In this document: positions 52,966-59,994 of the stretch, in pieces
Layout: each line of letters starts with the position of its first letter
Numbering within the stretch: the first letter of the stretch is position 1
Assembly: GCA_045544955.1 (NCBI GenBank)
Contig: JAZPZY010000046.1
Location: 128-64,127, forward strand
Length of the DNA: 64,000 bases
Origin: Eubacteriales bacterium
Lineage (GTDB): Bacteria > Bacillota > Clostridia > Oscillospirales > CAG-272
Direction of reading: 5' to 3'
Position numbers and translations under genes: made by a program
The notes under the pieces: generated by a model
The model's input: the letters and a program-made list of their open reading frames with translations, nothing else
What the model was told of the DNA's origin: nothing
Databases searched by the model: none

Positions 52966-53337
52966 ATGAAGTCTTTAGAAGAATTGATGGCGATCAAGGC
53001 AAAAATGCAGGACAAGGTTGCAATCCGCAAGGGTTCCGGTGAAACCAGAATCGTTGTAGGTATGGCTACCTGCGGTATTGCCGCCGGTGCAAGACCGGTG
53101 CTCAACGCATTCGTGGAGGCTGTCAACGAAGCAGGTCTCGCTGACACCGTTTCCGTTACCCAGACCGGCTGTATCGGTATCTGCCAGTACGAGCCCGTAG
53201 TTGAAGTGTACGAAAAGGGTGAGGAAAAGGTTACCTATGTTAAGATGACGCCCGCTAAGGCGAAGGAAGTAATCGAAAAACATATTAAGGGCGGCAAGGT
53301 CGTGGCTGAATACACTATCGGCGCGGCTAAAGCCTGA
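52966..53337 (+). CDS. Thioredoxin-like 2Fe-2S subunit (HydD/HndB)
   Basis: VGMATCGIAAGA, TGCIGIC.YEP. Confidence 0.9.
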   Translation: MKSLEELMAIKAKMQDKVAIRKGSGETRIVVGMATCGIAAGARPVLNAFVEAVNEAGLADTVSVTQTGCIGICQYEPVVEVYEKGEEKVTYVKMTPAKAKEVIEKHIKGGKVVAEYTIGAAKA

Positions 53338-53358
53338 ACCACAGGAGGATAAAACTAT

Positions 53359-55152
53359 ATGATTCGCTCTCATGTACTGATCTGCGGCGGTACCGGTTGT
53401 ACTTCTTCCGGCAGCGTTGCACTCCGTGACAGACTTGCGGAGGAACTCAAAGCAAAGGGCCTTGAGGAAGAGATCAAAATCGTTATGACCGGTTGCTTTG
53501 GTCTTTGTGCTCTCGGTCCGATCATGATCGTGTATCCCGAAGGCACGTTCTACAGCCAGGTTACCACTGACGACATTCCCGAAATCGTTGAGGAGCACCT
53601 TCTGAAGGGACGTATCGTTGATCGCCTTGTTTACAACGATAAGGCGGCCGACGCTGAAGAGCATTCCTCTTCGCTCTCCGATACGCAGTTCTATAAGAAA
53701 CAGAAGCGCGTTGCTCTCCGTAACTGCGGTGTTATTAACCCCGAAACAATTGACGAGTACTTCGCTATGGACGGTTATTTCGCACTGGCCAAGGTTGTGA
53801 AGGAAATGACGCCGGAAGACGTTATCAACACCATCCTTGCCTCCGGTCTCCGCGGACGCGGCGGCGGCGGATTCCCCACCGGCCGTAAGTGGCAGTTTGC
53901 CCGCGCATCCGTCGCTGACAAGAAATACGTAGTATGTAACGCCGACGAAGGTGACCCGGGTGCGTTCATGGACCGTTCCGTGCTGGAGGGTGACCCCCAC
54001 GCTCTGATCGAGGCTATGGCAATCGCTGCATACGCTATCGGCGCTGACGAAGGTTGGGTTTACGTTCGTGCAGAGTATCCGATCGCTGTAAGAAGACTTT
54101 CCATCGCTATTGAGCAGGCAAGAGAATACGGACTGCTCGGCAAGAACATCTTCGGTTCCGACTTCAACTTCGATCTGCATATCCGTCTCGGCGCCGGCGC
54201 ATTCGTGTGCGGTGAGGAAACGGCTCTGCTGACCTCCGTTGAAGGTAACCGCGGTGAGCCTCGTCCCCGTCCTCCGTTCCCGGCTGTTAAGGGTCTGTGG
54301 GGCAAGCCTACCATCATCAACAACGTTGAAACCTACGCCAACATTCCCCAGATCATCCTGAAGGGTGCCGATTGGTTCTCTTCCATGGGTACCGAGAAGT
54401 CCAAGGGTACGAAGGTATTCGCTCTGGGCGGCAAGATCACCAACACCGGTCTTGTGGAAGTTCCCATGGGTACCACGCTTCGTGAAATCGTTGAGGAGAT
54501 CGGCGGCGGCGTTCCGAACGGCAAGACGTTTAAGGCTGCACAGACCGGTGGTCCTTCCGGCGGTTGTATTCCGGCTTCTCTTATCGACGTAGCCATCGAC
54601 TACGATAACCTGATCGAAATCGGTTCCATGATGGGCTCCGGCGGTCTGATCGTCATGGACGAAGACACCTGTATGGTTGACCTTGCCAAGTTCTTCCTGG
54701 AGTTCACCGTGGATGAATCCTGCGGTAAGTGTGCTCCGTGCCGTATCGGTACCGTTCGCATGCTGGAGATCCTGAACAAGATCTGCGACGGCAACGGCGA
54801 GATGGAAGATCTGGACAAGCTGGAAGAGCTGGCTAACTACGTAAAGAGTGCTTCTCTCTGCGGTCTGGGTCAGACGGCTCCTAACCCGATTCTCTCCACG
54901 CTCCGTTATTTCCGTGACGAGTATATTGCTCATATCGTGGACAAGAAGTGTCCTGCCGGCGTTTGCAAAAAACTGCTTAACTACACCATCGATCCCGATA
55001 AGTGTAAGGGTTGTACTCTGTGTGCACGTGCTTGTCCCGCCGGTGCCATTACCGGTAAGGTTAAGGAAGCACACGTTATCGATCCCGCTAAGTGCGTGAA
55101 GTGCGGCGCTTGTATGGAAAAATGTAAGTTTGGCGCTATCTCCAGAAAGTAA
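53359..55152 (+). CDS. hydB: Bifurcating [FeFe]-hydrogenase NuoF-like FMN/NADH subunit (HydB/HndC)
   Basis: N-terminal 2Fe-2S, LRGRGGGGFPTG, CNADEGDPGAFMDR, GAFVCGEETAL, ESCGKCAPCR, C-terminal 2x[4Fe-4S]. Confidence 0.95.
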   Translation: MIRSHVLICGGTGCTSSGSVALRDRLAEELKAKGLEEEIKIVMTGCFGLCALGPIMIVYPEGTFYSQVTTDDIPEIVEEHLLKGRIVDRLVYNDKAADAEEHSSSLSDTQFYKKQKRVALRNCGVINPETIDEYFAMDGYFALAKVVKEMTPEDVINTILASGLRGRGGGGFPTGRKWQFARASVADKKYVVCNADEGDPGAFMDRSVLEGDPHALIEAMAIAAYAIGADEGWVYVRAEYPIAVRRLSIAIEQAREYGLLGKNIFGSDFNFDLHIRLGAGAFVCGEETALLTSVEGNRGEPRPRPPFPAVKGLWGKPTIINNVETYANIPQIILKGADWFSSMGTEKSKGTKVFALGGKITNTGLVEVPMGTTLREIVEEIGGGVPNGKTFKAAQTGGPSGGCIPASLIDVAIDYDNLIEIGSMMGSGGLIVMDEDTCMVDLAKFFLEFTVDESCGKCAPCRIGTVRMLEILNKICDGNGEMEDLDKLEELANYVKSASLCGLGQTAPNPILSTLRYFRDEYIAHIVDKKCPAGVCKKLLNYTIDPDKCKGCTLCARACPAGAITGKVKEAHVIDPAKCVKCGACMEKCKFGAISRK

Positions 55153-55170
55153 GAAAGGAGCTTTAACGAA

Positions 55171-56907
55171 ATGGATATGGTAAAAGTCAAAATTAACGGC
55201 ATTGAGGTTGAAGTTCCCAAGAACGCAACCGTTCTGGATGCCGCCAGAGTTGCCGGTATTAATATTCCGACGCTCTGCTATCTGAAAGATATCAATGAAA
55301 TCGGTGCTTGCCGTCTCTGCCTTGTTGAGGTAGTCGGTGCACGCGGTCTCGTTACCTCCTGCGTATATCCCGTAACGGATGGCATGGAGATCTTCACCAA
55401 CACCGAAAAGGTAAAGGCTGCCCGCAAGATGAACCTGGAACTGGTTCTCTCCGCTCACAACAAAAAGTGCCTTTCCTGCGTTCGCTCCACTACCTGTGAG
55501 CTGCAGAAGCTGGCTAACGAGTACGGTGTGGACGAGAACTACTTCAAGTCTGACGACTGCGAATGCGAAATCGATACTTCTTCTGTTTCCATTATCCGTG
55601 ACAACAGCAAGTGTATCCTTTGCCGCCGTTGCGTAGCTGCTTGTAACAACGTGCAGGGCATTGGTGCCATCGGCATGACCAACCGTGGTTACGATACCGA
55701 GGTTGCCTCTCCCAACGGCCTGAAACTGGCTGAAACCGCTTGTATCAACTGCGGTCAGTGCATCGTTGCATGTCCCACTGGTGCGCTCTACGAGCGTGAC
55801 GATACTGATGCAGTATTTGCTGCCATCAACGATCCTACAAAGCATGTGGCTATTTGCGCCGCACCTTCTGTTCGTGCTACCATCGGCGAGTGCTTCGGCT
55901 ACGAGCCCGGCACCGATGTAGAGGGACAGATGGTTGCCGCTATGAAGCGTCTCGGCTTCGATGGCGTATACGATATGAACTTCACTGCAGACCTTACCAT
56001 TATGGAAGAGGCTACCGAGTTCCTCGGCCGTGTGAAGAATGGCGGCGTTCTGCCGATGATCACTTCCTGCTCTCCCGGATGGGTTAAGTACTGCGAGCAT
56101 TTCTTCCCCGAAATGACGGACAACCTTTCCACCTGTAAGTCTCCTCAGCAGATGTTCGGTGCTATCTATAAGGCATACTATGCAAAGAAGATGGGCATCG
56201 ATCCCAAGGACGTTGTATTCGTATCTGCCATTCCGTGTACCGCAAAGAAATTTGAGGTAACCCGTGACGGTCAGGACGTGGAAGGCGTTCCGGGCGTGGA
56301 TTACGCAATCACCACCCGTGAGCTCGCCCGCATGATCGACGTTGCCGGCATCGATTTCCGAGCTCTCGCTGATGAGAAATTCGATTCTCCCGTTGACATC
56401 GGTTCCGGTGCAGGCGTTATCTTCGGTGCTACCGGCGGCGTTATGGAGGCTGCTCTCCGTACGGCTGCTGAGGTTATCCTCGGTACCGAGCTGAAGGAAG
56501 TTGACTTCAACGACGTTCGCGGTACGGAAGGCATTAAGTTTGCCACCTACAAGCTGGGCGATATGGAACTGAACGTGGCCGTAGCCAGCGGTACCGGCAA
56601 TGCCTGCAAGCTCCTCAAGGGCGTACAGGACGGTACCTACAAGGTTGACTTCATCGAAATCATGGGCTGTCCCGGCGGCTGTGTAAACGGCGGGGGTCAG
56701 CCGTATCAGCCGGCTTCCGTTCGCAACAGTGTGGATCTGAAAGCAAAGCGTGCTGCAGTTCTGTACAATGCAGATAAGAAGATGGATCTCCGTAAGTCTC
56801 ACGAGAACTCCATCATCAAGAAGCTGTACGAGGACTTCCTTGGTGAGCCCAACAGCCACCTGGCACACGAGCTGCTTCACACTCATTATGTAAAGCGCGG
56901 TAAGTAA
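55171..56907 (+). CDS. hydA: Group A3 [FeFe]-hydrogenase catalytic subunit (HydA/HndD)
   Basis: 2Fe-2S, His-ligated 4Fe-4S (HNKKC..C), 2x[4Fe-4S]; TSCSPGW, IPCTAKKFE, EIMGCPGGCVNGGGQP. Confidence 0.96.
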   Translation: MDMVKVKINGIEVEVPKNATVLDAARVAGINIPTLCYLKDINEIGACRLCLVEVVGARGLVTSCVYPVTDGMEIFTNTEKVKAARKMNLELVLSAHNKKCLSCVRSTTCELQKLANEYGVDENYFKSDDCECEIDTSSVSIIRDNSKCILCRRCVAACNNVQGIGAIGMTNRGYDTEVASPNGLKLAETACINCGQCIVACPTGALYERDDTDAVFAAINDPTKHVAICAAPSVRATIGECFGYEPGTDVEGQMVAAMKRLGFDGVYDMNFTADLTIMEEATEFLGRVKNGGVLPMITSCSPGWVKYCEHFFPEMTDNLSTCKSPQQMFGAIYKAYYAKKMGIDPKDVVFVSAIPCTAKKFEVTRDGQDVEGVPGVDYAITTRELARMIDVAGIDFRALADEKFDSPVDIGSGAGVIFGATGGVMEAALRTAAEVILGTELKEVDFNDVRGTEGIKFATYKLGDMELNVAVASGTGNACKLLKGVQDGTYKVDFIEIMGCPGGCVNGGGQPYQPASVRNSVDLKAKRAAVLYNADKKMDLRKSHENSIIKKLYEDFLGEPNSHLAHELLHTHYVKRGK

Positions 56908-57070: not shown

Positions 57071-58246
57071 ATGGATAAGGTCAGATTTGGTGTCATTGGT
57101 ATCGGCAACATGGGCACCTCTCATATTAAGAATTTCTTTGCCGGAAAAGTAGAAAACGGTGTTATTACCGCCGTTTGTGATCTGAAGCAGGAAAGACTGG
57201 ACGCGATCCGTGAAACGTGCGGCGATAATGTGCAGTATTTCCTGGATTATCACGATCTTCTGAAGTGCGACGATGTAGATGCCGTTGTTATCGCAACGCC
57301 GCACTATCTCCATCCTGTGATCGGTATCGAAGCTTTTAAGGCCGGCAAGCACGTACTCACCGAGAAACCGGTAGGCGTTTACACCAAAAAGGTGGAAGAG
57401 TTCATGGCTGCCGCCCGTGAAAGCGGCAAGGTGTTCGGTATCATGTACAACCAGCGTACGAACCCTGCCTTCCAGAAAATGCGTGAAATCGTACAGTCCG
57501 GTCAGCTTGGCGAACTGAAAAGGTGCATCTGGATCGTTACCAACTGGTACCGTACGCAGGCTTACTACAACAGCGGCGGATGGCGTGCTACCTGGGAAGG
57601 CGAAGGCGGCGGCGTTCTTCTGAATCAGTGCCCTCATAACCTGGATATCTGGCAGTGGATCTTCGGTATGCCCAACAGAATCCGTGCTTTCTGCTCTTTT
57701 GGTAAGTACCACGATATCGAAGTTGACGACGACGTAACCGCATACGCTGAGTACCCGAACGGCGCTACCGGTGTGTTTATCACGACTACCGGTGAGTCCT
57801 CCGGTACCAACCGTCTGGAGATCAGCGGTTCTCTTGGTAAGTTGATTTATGAGCCCACAACCGGTATTCTTGAATACACCAAGTTTGAAATAGACGAGCG
57901 TAAGTTCTGTTTTGAGTGCCCCGATAGTTTCAAGCAGATTCCTTGCACCGTCGAGCAGATCAAGTTTGACAGCACCGGTCCCGCCCACATGGGTATCTTC
58001 CAGAACTTCACCAATCATCTTTTGAACGGTGAACCGCTTCTGGCTCCCGGCTACGAAGGCATCAACGGTCTGTCTATCTCCAACGCAATGATGCTCTCCA
58101 CCTGGAAGAACGATTTCGTTGACATTCCCAACGATGGCACCGAATTCCTTGCACACCTCGAGGAGAAGATCAAGAACTCCACCGTTAAAAAGGCAGACGT
58201 CGCAGGCGGCGTTGCCAACCTTGACGGCACTTACGGAACTAAGTAA
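57071..58246 (+). CDS. Gfo/Idh/MocA-family oxidoreductase
   Basis: GVIGIGNMG Rossmann fold, IATPHYLH, KHVLTEKP, GGGVLLNQCPHNLD. Confidence 0.92.
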   Translation: MDKVRFGVIGIGNMGTSHIKNFFAGKVENGVITAVCDLKQERLDAIRETCGDNVQYFLDYHDLLKCDDVDAVVIATPHYLHPVIGIEAFKAGKHVLTEKPVGVYTKKVEEFMAAARESGKVFGIMYNQRTNPAFQKMREIVQSGQLGELKRCIWIVTNWYRTQAYYNSGGWRATWEGEGGGVLLNQCPHNLDIWQWIFGMPNRIRAFCSFGKYHDIEVDDDVTAYAEYPNGATGVFITTTGESSGTNRLEISGSLGKLIYEPTTGILEYTKFEIDERKFCFECPDSFKQIPCTVEQIKFDSTGPAHMGIFQNFTNHLLNGEPLLAPGYEGINGLSISNAMMLSTWKNDFVDIPNDGTEFLAHLEEKIKNSTVKKADVAGGVANLDGTYGTK

Positions 58247-58258
58247 TTTATAAGTCAC

Positions 58259-58291
58259 AAACCGTATGCAGAAAGCATACGGTTTTTCTTT
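58259..58291 (+). terminator. Intrinsic terminator
   Basis: AAACCGTATGC-AGAAA-GCATACGGTTTTTCTTT. Confidence 0.85.
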
Positions 58292-58296
58292 CGCTC

Positions 58297-58325
58297 TTGA
58301 CAATTGATGTCCAGTTTGTTATAAT
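58297..58325 (+). promoter_or_regulatory. Perfect-consensus sigmaA promoter
   Basis: TTGACA-17 bp-TATAAT with extended -10 TG. Confidence 0.85.
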
Positions 58326-58330
58326 GTAGT

Positions 58331-58435
58331 TGTGAATAGGGGCGGGCACCCATAAGAAAAAACGGCATTCACATTCCACAATCGAATCAACACAAGGGGG
58401 AGACACCCATCGAAAAAAATATTATTGTGATTGAT
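58331..58435 (+). promoter_or_regulatory. Tandem structured 5' leader: two copies of AGGGG-N4-CACCCAT-(N1-2)-GAAAAAA, each inside a closing stem
   Basis: Copies at 58338-58362 and 58395-58419 (57-nt period); closing stems TGTGAAT/ATTCACA and ATCAACACAA/TTGTGATTGAT. Confidence 0.6.
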
Positions 58436-58837
58436 GAGCAGGGAAATGAGTATGAAGCGACCTATCCCAAGCGGGCAAAAGGTCTTGTGAAAAACGGCAG
58501 GGCACGCTTCATTAATGAAAATACAATTTGCCTTGCGTGCCCTCCGGATACAAATTTGGAGGATAAACAAATGGAAACTAATAGATTAACATCGAGAGAA
58601 ATATTTGCACAACTCACCATACTGCAAAAACAACTAACCGAAAACAGCCAAACCTCGTTGCACCGTTTAGGTGATGCGCTCTCTTCTCTTGAAGGCGAGG
58701 AGAACGACGCCAAGTACGAACAAGTTGCCGAAATTTGCGATGTTTTCAAAACGAGAGAGCTAACACTTTTCAAATTGCTAGAAATGTACGAAAAAATGTA
58801 CGATGATATTCAGCATCGCGAAAATACAAAAACCTAA
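58409..58837 (+). CDS. Hypothetical protein: PLMP/RRXRR-like N-terminal domain plus helical C-terminal domain; probable ATC start and internal ATG start at 58571
   Basis: GGGGGAG-6 nt-ATC in frame; the ORF-track GTG at 58427 has no SD; internal GGAGG-8 nt-ATG. Confidence 0.7.
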   Translation: MEKNIIVIDEQGNEYEATYPKRAKGLVKNGRARFINENTICLACPPDTNLEDKQMETNRLTSREIFAQLTILQKQLTENSQTSLHRLGDALSSLEGEENDAKYEQVAEICDVFKTRELTLFKLLEMYEKMYDDIQHRENTKT

Positions 58838-58896
58838 TCCGTACAAGATACATTCTAAGAACTGTTGCCTGATGCCAACACACGCCTAAAGAAACC

Positions 58897-58925
58897 GAGC
58901 TCGTATGGAAAATCCATACGGGCTC
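58897..58925. terminator. 13-bp hairpin after the hypothetical gene (terminator or 5' stabiliser of the next mRNA)
   Basis: GAGCTCGTATGGA-AAA-TCCATACGGGCTC; no good U tract on the plus strand. Confidence 0.45.
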
Positions 58926-58956
58926 ACTCTATATATCGCACAACCTGGAGGATATT

Positions 58957-59994
58957 ATGGACTTCACAAGACTTAACAAACAGATCGACGATTACTGCGA
59001 AAAGGAATGCATCATGGGCGTTCTCCGCGTGACGGTGCATGATCAAATCATTTATAAAAGAGAATTCGGTGTCGCCGACATCGAAACGGGTGAGAGATTC
59101 TCCGATACGTCTGCATTCACGTTTTATTCAATCTCCAAACCGCTCTGCATGCTCGGAATCATGAAACTGGTCGATGCCGGGCTTGTGGATCTCGACGTGC
59201 ATCCATCAGTATATTTGCCGGAGGCGAAATGGTTTGACAAGCGAATTACGCTTCGCATGATGTTTCACCACACAAGCGGCTTGCCGGAACTGCGGGAGAT
59301 TCCCGATTTTCTTGCAAAGACGGCCGGGGAACCGTATTCACTGGCGGCACGCAAGGGAATTTCCATGCTGGCAGACTATCCAATGCATTTTGAGCCGGGC
59401 ACACGTGGGGAGTACGCCAACGTAAACATCATGACGGCGGCACTGATTATTGAAAACGTTACCGGAATTCCTTATGCAAAATATATGGAAAAGGAAGTTT
59501 TCACACCGCTGAAAATGGAGCGTACCGTGGTGGATGATCCTGTTATGTTCATTCCCAACCGAGTAAGCGGCCATAATCTGGATAGCGGAAAACTTGTAAA
59601 GGTGCCTAAATCCTACGGCAGTATGTTCGGTGCCGGCGATATTGTCGGCACGGCAGACGATCTTTACCGCTTGAACCATGCGATCAAGTACAAACTCCTT
59701 ATCAGCGAAGACGCCTGGAACGCCGTCCTCACGCCTTCGCCGCTTAGTAAGATGGGACTCGGATGCACAATCACGCAGTGGCACGGTAAGCATCGCATTA
59801 CCCATAACGGTGGTGCTTCCGGATTCCGGACGCTGCACGTACAACTGCCAGACGATGACTTTGACGTAATTTTTCTGTCAAACAGCGGCTTTGGCAACGC
59901 ACGCAACGATATCCTTGAAATGATTCACGATGCATGTTACGGGAGCGATCAACCGCTGGGCGATACCTTTGAGATGGATAAAGGATATATTTAA
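58957..59994 (+). CDS. Serine hydrolase, beta-lactamase/class C-like family (cytoplasmic)
   Basis: SISK (SxxK), HTSGL, YAN (YxN), HNGG; no signal peptide. Confidence 0.88.
   Translation: MDFTRLNKQIDDYCEKECIMGVLRVTVHDQIIYKREFGVADIETGERFSDTSAFTFYSISKPLCMLGIMKLVDAGLVDLDVHPSVYLPEAKWFDKRITLRMMFHHTSGLPELREIPDFLAKTAGEPYSLAARKGISMLADYPMHFEPGTRGEYANVNIMTAALIIENVTGIPYAKYMEKEVFTPLKMERTVVDDPVMFIPNRVSGHNLDSGKLVKVPKSYGSMFGAGDIVGTADDLYRLNHAIKYKLLISEDAWNAVLTPSPLSKMGLGCTITQWHGKHRITHNGGASGFRTLHVQLPDDDFDVIFLSNSGFGNARNDILEMIHDACYGSDQPLGDTFEMDKGYI

Follow-up and report, generated by a model that had tools for sequence, protein, structure and literature searches.

Twin-hairpin leader RNA and a PLMP-like domain in a candidate self-regulated gene module of gut and rumen Clostridia

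The unit and its twin-hairpin leader

The DNA analyzed here (the window, i.e., the whole stretch of 64,000 nucleotides) belongs to contig JAZPZY010000046.1 of an Eubacteriales bacterium (Clostridia; GenBank assembly GCA_045544955.1), and this report concerns a short monocistronic module towards its 3' end, all parts of which lie on the forward strand. The module begins with a sigma-A-type promoter with an extended -10 box (TTGACA-17-TG-n-TATAAT, 58297-58325) that matches the consensus at 12 of 12 positions, followed by a leader with two copies of a hairpin motif and by an open reading frame (ORF) of 142 aa (58409-58837, stop codon TAA at 58835-58837). The N-terminal part of this ORF encodes a domain that resembles in fold the PLMP domain of IscB and IsrB, and a second ribosome-binding site within the ORF may give rise to a shorter product of 88 aa. 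The reading frame is open from 58340, inside the first motif copy, down to the stop codon, and its first ATG, GTG or TTG is the GTG at 58427, where the existing gene call for the protein (P0001, 136 aa) begins. The original prediction for this locus, made from the sequence alone, had described a promoter, a tandem motif, an in-frame ATC, an internal GGAGG with an ATG and a hairpin on either flank; all were found where it had placed them, and its lengths for the long and short products were correct.

The leader contains a 25-nt element twice (58338-58362 and 58395-58419; 76% identity, 57 nt apart), and the pattern GGGG-N4-CACCCAT-N3-AAAAA had 2 matches in the 64-kb window versus 0 in 100 shuffles. 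Alignment of the upstream regions of 19 loci revealed a common layout in 18 of them, consisting of a promoter, a stem arm, the sequence GGGG-R-N-G-R-Y-A-CCC-AU-N3-AAAAAAC and the complementary arm, followed after a spacer of 20-40 nt by a second copy whose CCC adjoins the first codon of the ORF. A further 80 loci were added to this first set for the comparison of leaders. The strict pattern detected copy 1 in 92 of 96 loci, and two of the four misses (L071 and L076) are degenerate versions. Promoter-like sites precede copy 1 in 77 of 82 distinct leaders, and in 73 of these 77 the -10 box ends 12-14 nt 5' of the GGGG, which places hairpin 1 at the predicted 5' end of the mRNA.

The motif spans about 45 nt and is composed of a covarying stem (P1) around a GGGG...CCC mini-hairpin (P2), followed by an AU-N3-AAAAAAC tail. 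In the window, copy 1 (58331-58373) lies at or next to the predicted mRNA 5' end and is formed by P1 (58331-58337 paired with 58367-58373) and P2 (GGG 58339-58341 with CCC 58349-58351), after which comes the AUAAGAAAAAAC tail. Copy 2 (58386-58435), which holds the first ribosome-binding site, is formed by P1' (58386-58395 with 58425-58435, the 3' arm being codons 6-9 of the ORF) and P2' (GGG 58396-58398 with CCC 58406-58408). The minimum free energy fold of the window leader shows P1 and P2 of copy 1 and also copy 2. A covariance model, R1, was built from 85 distinct copy-1 sequences with a structure supplied by us; in the window it matched copy 1 with 53.8 bits (E 1e-10) and copy 2 with 23.3 bits (E 0.007). 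Its 191 matches among the related sequences fall in 99 loci and amount in essence to one copy 1 (40-72 bits) and one copy 2 (20-38 bits) per locus.

Double changes were observed at 7 of 7 P1 pairs in the model-fitted alignment, with a covariation score of 0.339 compared with 0.134 for shuffled alignments (0 of 500 as high) and 0.08-0.21 for slid-partner controls. The arms of P1 are seen to differ between loci (gtgaat/attcac, gcgaat/attcgc, gctaat/attagc, ggcgg/ccgcc, ctgcag). P2 is invariant across loci, and from a gapless MAFFT alignment (A2) RNAalifold recovered P2 only, P1 being recovered once the structure was supplied. Since the P1 pair counts lean towards the supplied structure, a flank-swap test serves as an independent check. 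Own flanks gave -7.16 kcal/mol against -4.38 for swapped flanks in copy 1, and -6.43 against -4.65 kcal/mol in copy 2, with 0 of 1000 permutations as low for either copy, tests of this kind being inflated by the relatedness of the loci. The leader motif is real as a structured RNA. No relevant family was found among the Rfam 15 covariance models at E <= 10 over positions 57800-59400 of the window, the only two matches being to an archaeal snoRNA (E 1) and, within the coding sequence (CDS), to an S-element (E 1.8), and on 16 related loci nothing but tRNAs exceeded the gathering thresholds.

Two probable start sites and the PLMP-like domain

The first Shine-Dalgarno sequence (SD1, AAGGGGGAG, 58394-58402) lies partly within the 5' arm of P2', and partition-function folds of 81 leaders gave its G-run a predicted mean unpaired probability of 0.24. 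The ATC at 58409-58411, in frame and 8 nt past the fifth G of the G-run, is the probable start codon of the long isoform, and copy 2 spans the SD, this codon and codons 1-9. Across 97 aligned rows, the codon directly after the CACCC of copy 2 (position 0) was ATC in 70, ATA in 16, ATG in 8 and ATT in 2, i.e., ATC, ATA or ATT in 88 of 97, a tally in which L016 is shifted by the alignment (its own ATG is three codons upstream) and L020 represents the place of L013 retrieved a second time. In 23 of 96 loci, the stretch from the upstream stop to codon 44 contains no in-frame ATG, GTG or TTG, and in 34 of 96 no canonical codon lies 12 codons or fewer from position 0. The tandem motif is also kept in eight distant homologs, which belong to other families of Clostridia and have ATG at position 0 in seven cases and ATA in one. 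Because the distant homologs place ATG exactly there and many loci are without a canonical start, this comparison identifies position 0 as the family's start; it also indicates that the window's clade replaced AUG by the near-cognate AUC or AUA. The long isoform had been described as poorly initiated, which holds for the window's clade with its ATC and ATA codons and fails for the deep branches, where the codon is ATG.

Two other starts were considered and ruled out. Translation from copy 1, as a longer ORF or as a leader peptide, is contradicted by the distance between copies 1 and 2, which ranges from 45 to 86 nt with no preference for multiples of three; as the relatives do not hold this spacing to multiples of three, the frame open back to copy 1 is a matter of chance. 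The ATG or GTG three codons upstream of position 0, from which many database entries take their initial M (MTPIEKN...), occupies a variable position of the P2' loop abutting the G-run. In 82 leaders this codon was GCG 43 times, GTG 14, GAG 13, ACG 6, ATG 4, TCG 1 and TTG 1, and was canonical in only 19.

The N-terminal domain comprises about 48 aa (58409-58552). Entropies of 0.23, 0.17 and 0.73 at codon positions 1, 2 and 3 of codons 0-47 indicate that these codons are translated and under purifying selection, and the peptide T-Y-P-K-R-A-K-G-L-V-K-N-G-R-A-R-F is extremely conserved even where the remaining protein is 35-50% identical. The AlphaFold2 (AF2) model of residues 1-50, with a predicted local distance difference test (pLDDT) score of 85.3, contains the elements E5-9, E14-18, H20-28, E32-36 and E39-42, i.e., a beta-beta-alpha-beta-beta fold with a basic helix (PKRAKGLVKNGRA). 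Foldseek against the PDB returned IscB or IsrB chains at all ranks from 1 to 9 (probability 0.93-1.00, TMq 0.63-0.75, 24-29% identity, best root-mean-square deviation 1.8 Å), and ranks 1-5 of an exhaustive VIA search were also IscB/IsrB chains (Z 5.3-6.9, aligned over about chain residues 1-54). The N-terminal domain of initiation factor 3 (IF3-N) followed below these rows in VIA, with Z 3.7 for 1tif_A and 5me1_Y and Z 3.3 for the mitochondrial IF3 6rw4_8. This clean ranking agrees with the statement in PMC9581776 that the PLMP domain is IF3-N-like. Judged by these models, the N-domain is PLMP-like in fold and more weakly IF3-N-like. In Pfam searches, neither the window protein nor any of eight relatives matched a RuvC or HNH family, and the window protein had no match to the IF3 family at E <= 10, the IF3 C-domain being absent.

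The internal ribosome-binding site consists of a GGAGG (SD2, 58558-58562), an 8-nt spacer and an in-frame ATG (58571-58573). Of 80 distinct linker segments, 79 contain an SD-like element with an in-frame start (ATG 73, GTG 5, TTG 1; L010 was set to ATG by eye, two codons past the TTG chosen by the script), and the spacer measures 8 nt in 81 of 87 sequences. The Glu codon of SD2 is GAG in 87 of 87, while the other Glu codons of the same genes are GAA 1305 times and GAG 560 times (30% GAG). The codon before it always ends in G (87/87) though it may encode L, M, V, S, T or E, and where it encodes Leu it is TTG in 74 of 74. In all eight distant homologs an in-frame ATG at codons 52-59 is preceded, at a distance of 6-10 nt, by GGAGGA, AAAGGA or AAGGAG, and this holds although their linker peptides are unrelated (e.g., SERTENM and KEKETKEM, with AAAGGA or AAGGAG before the ATG). 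This codon usage argues that SD2 is selected at the nucleotide level and not at the residue level. As read from the sequences, the gene has signals for two products, one of 142 aa and one of 88 aa.

A conserved hairpin within the CDS, H3 (58495-58546), was predicted by RNAalifold from 48 sequences and pairs CGGCAGGGCACGC (58495-58507) with GCGTGCCCTCCG (58535-58546). H3 joins the codons of G-R-A-R to those of A-C-P-P, and the Pro-Pro codons contribute a CCTCC (58541-58545) with which its 3' arm overlaps. Synonymous sites are frozen within H3, with an entropy of 0 at the AGG and CGC Arg codons. In the folds of the 81 leaders, the CCNCC of the Pro-Pro codons was the main predicted partner of SD2, for which a mean unpaired probability of 0.17 was predicted. 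The codon of Pro44 is CCT in 53 sequences, CCG in 35 and CCC in none, the other Pro codons being 16% CCT and 32% CCC. These predictions suggest that SD2 is masked until it is freed by ribosomes or by an alternative fold. A pairing between the variable loop of copy 2 and the 3' arm of H3 was dropped, as consistent covariation was not seen in the alignment.

C-terminal parts, distribution and genomic context

The predicted 88-aa short isoform corresponds to the C-terminal domain (58571-58837), which AF2 models as a helical bundle with pLDDT 83-96, and the ESM Atlas contains exactly this 88-aa sequence. The domain matched no Pfam or NCBIfam family, and searches gave no Foldseek match at E <= 0.001 and nothing above noise in the ESM Atlas. 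A complex prediction with residues 55-142 in two copies scored 0.09, which weighs neither way on a homodimer. Relatives of the 142-aa translation numbered 2231 at E <= 0.01 among 2243 candidates; few carry names, all of them 'hypothetical protein', and gene callers have annotated the N-termini of the family in at least four different versions. With a profile of the N-domain, 913 clusters at 50% identity were retrieved (658 at E <= 1e-10), in which the domain is always N-terminal and the proteins are 53-301 aa long. The parts that follow the N-domain and motif include helical domains that share just their last helix (R-E-x-T...Y-E-K-M-Y) and, in L016, L019, L138 and IMG/VR contigs, a longer part unrelated to these, with a length of about 270-320 aa.

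Alignment A1 showed the window protein to be a short form, since 13 of 19 aligned homologs extend some 35-55 residues past the Y-E-K-M-Y-D-D helix; the other six terminate at the same point. Seven of the ten IMG/VR contigs with the motif pattern (L153-L157, L159 and L161) have the full tandem leader, an ATA start and the N-domain, together with the internal GGAGG and ATG, a C-terminal part of about 270 aa and, as neighbour, an unannotated ORF of 365 aa. The 'viral' label of these contigs is uncertain. Two decayed paralogs were also observed. L018 (G008:C48) has no leader motif, and an in-frame TAG cuts its ORF to 85 aa within the protein match, while L140 (G180:C1) keeps both motif copies and has an out-of-register ORF that stops at about 70 aa.

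R1 had only 2 matches in the window's own 2.69-Mb genome, both in this leader. Matches to R1 and the protein coincide in the same 16 of 61 related genomes, with 0 matches in the 45 genomes that are without the protein, and distant N-domain genes with other C-termini retain the tandem motif. One extra match (L119:1501-1551, reverse strand; G048:C41) is a lone, degenerate copy-1-like hairpin with a promoter, directly 5' of a lipoprotein-like ORF (MKKIVCFVLAGILLLSCAAC...); copy 2 and the N-domain are absent there, and this lone copy is probably a relic left by rearrangement. The carriers are metagenome-assembled genomes of gut and rumen Clostridia, and occurrence is patchy (16 of 61 close relatives, 12 of 400 genomes sampled across the class).

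Synteny is absent within the genus, where the upstream oxidoreductase gene is conserved and the module lies on other contigs. The 346 flanking ORFs fell into 254 clusters, the biggest of which spans 10 loci; no conserved operon or mobile-element context was found among them, and the Pfam matches of the recurrent neighbours were housekeeping genes. The unit had been described as a portable cassette: its non-syntenic position within the genus is in line with this, but mobility genes were not found beside it. In the window, the neighbours of the unit are unrelated to each other, namely a Gfo/Idh/MocA oxidoreductase gene on the 5' side (57071-58246; Pfam) and a gene for a beta-lactamase-family hydrolase on the 3' side (58957-59994). 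The intrinsic terminator of the former (58259-58291, i.e., 58259-58285 plus a T-run; 11-bp stem) insulates the unit on its 5' side. The hairpin downstream of the unit (58897-58925; 13-nt arms, 92% complementary) has no T-run and received no score as an intrinsic terminator in a scan for terminator-like sites; it is possibly a transcript end or a stabiliser, a canonical intrinsic terminator being excluded.

The T-run of the upstream terminator (58280-58290) is 91% complementary to the A-tail of copy 1 (58354-58364) and forms an inverted repeat with it, most likely a chance pairing of a T-run with an A-run that is relevant to read-through transcripts only. Further upstream, an antisense open frame of 1303 aa (52975-56886, reverse strand) lies opposite a 578-aa gene (55171-56907) and the sequence upstream of that gene; the composition of the sense genes probably gives rise to this frame as an artefact.

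In a scan of the upstream flanks, tRNA genes of the same strand lay within 1.5 kb upstream of the module at 20 of 81 loci (L004, L005, L006, L010, L017, L022, L026, L030-L037, L041, L049, L061, L063 and L064). They form at least six arrays (Val-Asp-Phe-Gly-Cys, Gly-Arg-His, Thr-Tyr, Leu, Arg and Thr) and probably explain why many module copies sit near contig ends. Recurrent neighbours related to translation were QueA (10 loci), a translational GTPase (8) and MiaA (4). This neighbourhood of tRNA and translation genes might point to hot spots of integration or to a connection with translation.

Proposed self-regulated translation, its rivals and known systems

The module is probably self-regulating at the level of translation. 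In the mechanism that we propose, the PLMP-like domain of the long product would bind the twin hairpins of its own leader and stabilise the fold in which SD1 and the start codon are hidden, a negative feedback on the long isoform, which would be scarce owing to its weak AUC start. The short isoform would be initiated at SD2, and since SD2 is predicted to be masked by the CCUCC of the Pro-Pro codons, its output may depend on ribosomes translating the N-domain. Copy 1 might serve as a cooperative site, as a 5' stabiliser or as both. We give an about even chance to the central step, namely that the N-domain binds its own leader hairpins and, by closing the fold over SD1 and the start codon, limits the long isoform. 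This reading rests on the strict co-occurrence of motif and N-domain and on the published behaviour of PLMP in IsrB and IscB. According to PMC9581776, the IF3-N-like PLMP domain of IsrB binds SL7 and SL8, a tandem pair of omega-RNA hairpins, one of these terminal hairpins carries the isrB SD, and the contact with it may regulate IsrB expression. PMC9640706 likewise describes the terminal omega-RNA hairpins of IscB as recognised by the PLMP domain. As in an operator, the structured element here overlaps the SD and the start codon, and it accompanies the gene in 16 of 16 protein-bearing genomes. Judged from sequence comparison, the overall interpretation of the original prediction is partly supported, and its comparative expectations all came out favourably: homologs conserve the GGGG-N4-CACCC-ATH motif with its tandem copy and the internal SD with its ATG, they mostly have no usable canonical start, the N-domain is PLMP/IF3-N-like by fold, and the C-terminal cargo behind it varies up to the unrelated part of about 270-320 aa.

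Several observations weigh against this mechanism. The fold scores of the N-domain are modest (Foldseek E 0.08-0.4, VIA Z < 7), as expected for a domain of only 50 residues. Matches to the Pfam family RRXRR (PF14239), whose N-terminal part corresponds to the PLMP domain, stayed below the cut-off of 25 bits both in the window protein (E 0.03-0.05, 13.8-14.7 bits) and in relatives (E 0.008-0.2 in six of eight; 12-17 bits overall), these partial matches always covering profile positions 1-3 to 36-52, and the PDB profile match to TbaIscB reached only E 0.22 over 28 residues. The PLMP tetrapeptide is absent, the PLMP of TbaIscB being aligned by HMMER to E-Y-E-A of the family consensus. In PMC9640706, hairpin recognition by IscB is described as mainly sequence-independent, a poor fit with the approximately 20 near-invariant nucleotides of the motif. 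The stability of the window leader is ordinary relative to shuffles (z -0.5 for 116 nt, -1.16 for 271 nt). Conservation of some 20 loop and tail nucleotides is, moreover, typical of small-molecule aptamers. The use of AUG in the deep branches means that weak initiation is not essential to the module. Finally, the masking of SD2 is a product of in-silico folding alone, and Pro44 is encoded by CCG and not CCT in 35 of 89 sequences.

The aptamer-like conservation would be accounted for if the leader were a tandem riboswitch or the site of another factor (a ribosomal protein, IF3 or something tRNA-related), the ligand stabilising P2' and P1' and closing SD1, so that the N-domain protein would be the regulated product and not the regulator. 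In addition to the near-invariant nucleotides inside a covarying stem, the tandem small hairpins with an SD in the second resemble the guanidine-II architecture, a near-cognate start would confer sensitivity to initiation fidelity as in infC, and tRNA genes, QueA, the translational GTPase and MiaA recur near the module. However, the motif is confined to one protein family, within its own genome as well as across the same 16 of 61 genomes, this family has no enzyme or transporter features, Rfam has no match, and solved relatives of the product's fold bind exactly such RNA. We consider this explanation unlikely. A leader acting as a stable RNA partner is a quite improbable alternative; in such a minimal PLMP-RNA particle, a free-standing counterpart of the contact between PLMP and omega-RNA, the variable C-domain would supply the activity. 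The joint presence or absence of N-domain and motif across Clostridia while C-termini change would suit a particle of this kind, as would the position of hairpin 1 at the transcript 5' end in the 73 of 77 promoter-bearing leaders, where a hairpin can have an RNA-stabilising effect, and the OMEGA RNA partner is likewise encoded directly upstream of its protein and overlaps the protein's SD. Against this, the leader measures only about 100 nt and is without a variable, guide-like segment, and the C-domains belong to no recognisable catalytic family.

The plainest alternative is an ordinary gene that starts at a nearby canonical codon, here GTG 58427, with hairpins that only stabilise the mRNA, as 5'-terminal hairpins are known to do in Firmicutes, and with an internal Met and SD-like codons that are a by-product of a conserved L-E-E/D-x-x-M peptide. 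The gene call P0001 follows this reading, and some canonical codon lies within 12 codons of position 0 in 62 of 96 loci. Yet GTG 58427 is about 25 nt past SD1, and a start there would cut strand beta-1; a canonical start before codon 44 is absent from 23 of 96 loci although the domain has coding periodicity, and the ATG of distant homologs falls exactly at position 0. A peptide by-product is hard to reconcile with an SD2 whose G, TTG and GAG are kept in 87 of 87, 74 of 74 and 87 of 87 sequences while the residue before the Glu varies, and with the distant linkers that retain AAAGGA or AAGGAG under peptides such as SERTENM and KEKETKEM. An ordinary gene is therefore very improbable and largely excluded.

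If the N-domain binds its leader, the module would contribute a structured RNA motif that is widespread in gut and rumen Clostridia and previously undescribed (913 protein clusters, no Rfam family) and would combine three translational devices in about 250 nt, namely a start-containing operator, a conserved AUC/AUA start and a masked internal start. It would also show what a PLMP domain does alone, and it would bear on how IscB and IsrB, and hence the Cas9 lineage, gained this domain and why PLMP contacts the SD of its own gene. The annotation of the family, whose N-termini gene callers place in several ways, would be corrected by the start proposed here.

The gene infC, which encodes IF3, is autoregulated through a near-cognate AUU start codon. 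The module is similar in its conserved AUH-type non-AUG start, in the weakly IF3-N-like fold of its product and in the potential of a weak start as a regulatory lever; it differs in that the IF3-N fold match is weak (Z 3.3-3.7), that Pfam gives no IF3 match and that deep branches use AUG. Codon discrimination by IF3 is performed by its C-domain, which the module protein does not have. Translational operators that include the start site are known from the hairpin of MS2 and Q-beta, where coat protein acts on the replicase gene, and from ribosomal-protein leaders. As in these, a hairpin with SD and start codon is the proposed site of a small RNA-binding protein that would exert feedback on translation. 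The module departs from them in having two copies of the proposed operator in tandem, in that the ORF under control would itself encode the regulator, and in a second, internal start that would yield an isoform devoid of the RNA-binding part. Guanidine-II (mini-ykkC) and other tandem mini-hairpin riboswitches also have two similar small hairpins in series with an SD associated with the second, but the leader described here has no Rfam match at E <= 10, has a 25-nt internal conserved region in place of a tetraloop and is tied to one protein family. In-frame internal initiation is known from infB (IF2 alpha and beta), clpB and cheA, with which the module shares a conserved in-frame internal SD and start and a predicted N-terminally truncated isoform. 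Unlike in those genes, what lies before the internal start is a putative RNA-binding domain, which is thereby set apart from the remaining protein, and a structured leader and a near-cognate first start are present as well.

Among literature search-result entries (without supplements) on the PLMP domain, RRXRR and bacterial AUC starts, no stand-alone PLMP-like protein with such a leader was found. Among the closest known systems are the OMEGA nucleases IscB and IsrB, whose PLMP domain is bound to the tandem terminal hairpins of omega-RNA. They share with the module an N-terminal beta-beta-alpha-beta-beta domain whose basic helix follows the pattern P-x-[KR]-A-[KR]-x-L-[LV]-K-x-G-[KR]-A, and two tandem hairpins directly 5' of the gene, one of which contains the gene's own SD. 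On the other hand, the module is without the RuvC, bridge-helix, HNH and TI domains and without a guide or a long omega-RNA scaffold, its PLMP tetrapeptide is replaced (E-Y-E-A in the window), its sequence similarity lies under the family thresholds, its second hairpin also holds the start codon and the first nine codons, and its gene lies outside an IS200/605-like context. We tentatively suggest, as a possibility that we regard as somewhat doubtful, that it may be a free-standing PLMP-RNA module, in which a 48-aa PLMP-type domain is paired with a dedicated twin-hairpin RNA at the 5' end of its own mRNA. Acting through the near-cognate start and a translationally coupled internal start, the contact between the two would then determine how much long, RNA-tethered isoform is made relative to the free short form of a C-terminal part that is divergent and sometimes unrelated, and the whole would represent a minimal, nuclease-free relative (or precursor) of the terminal-hairpin contact between IscB/IsrB and omega-RNA.

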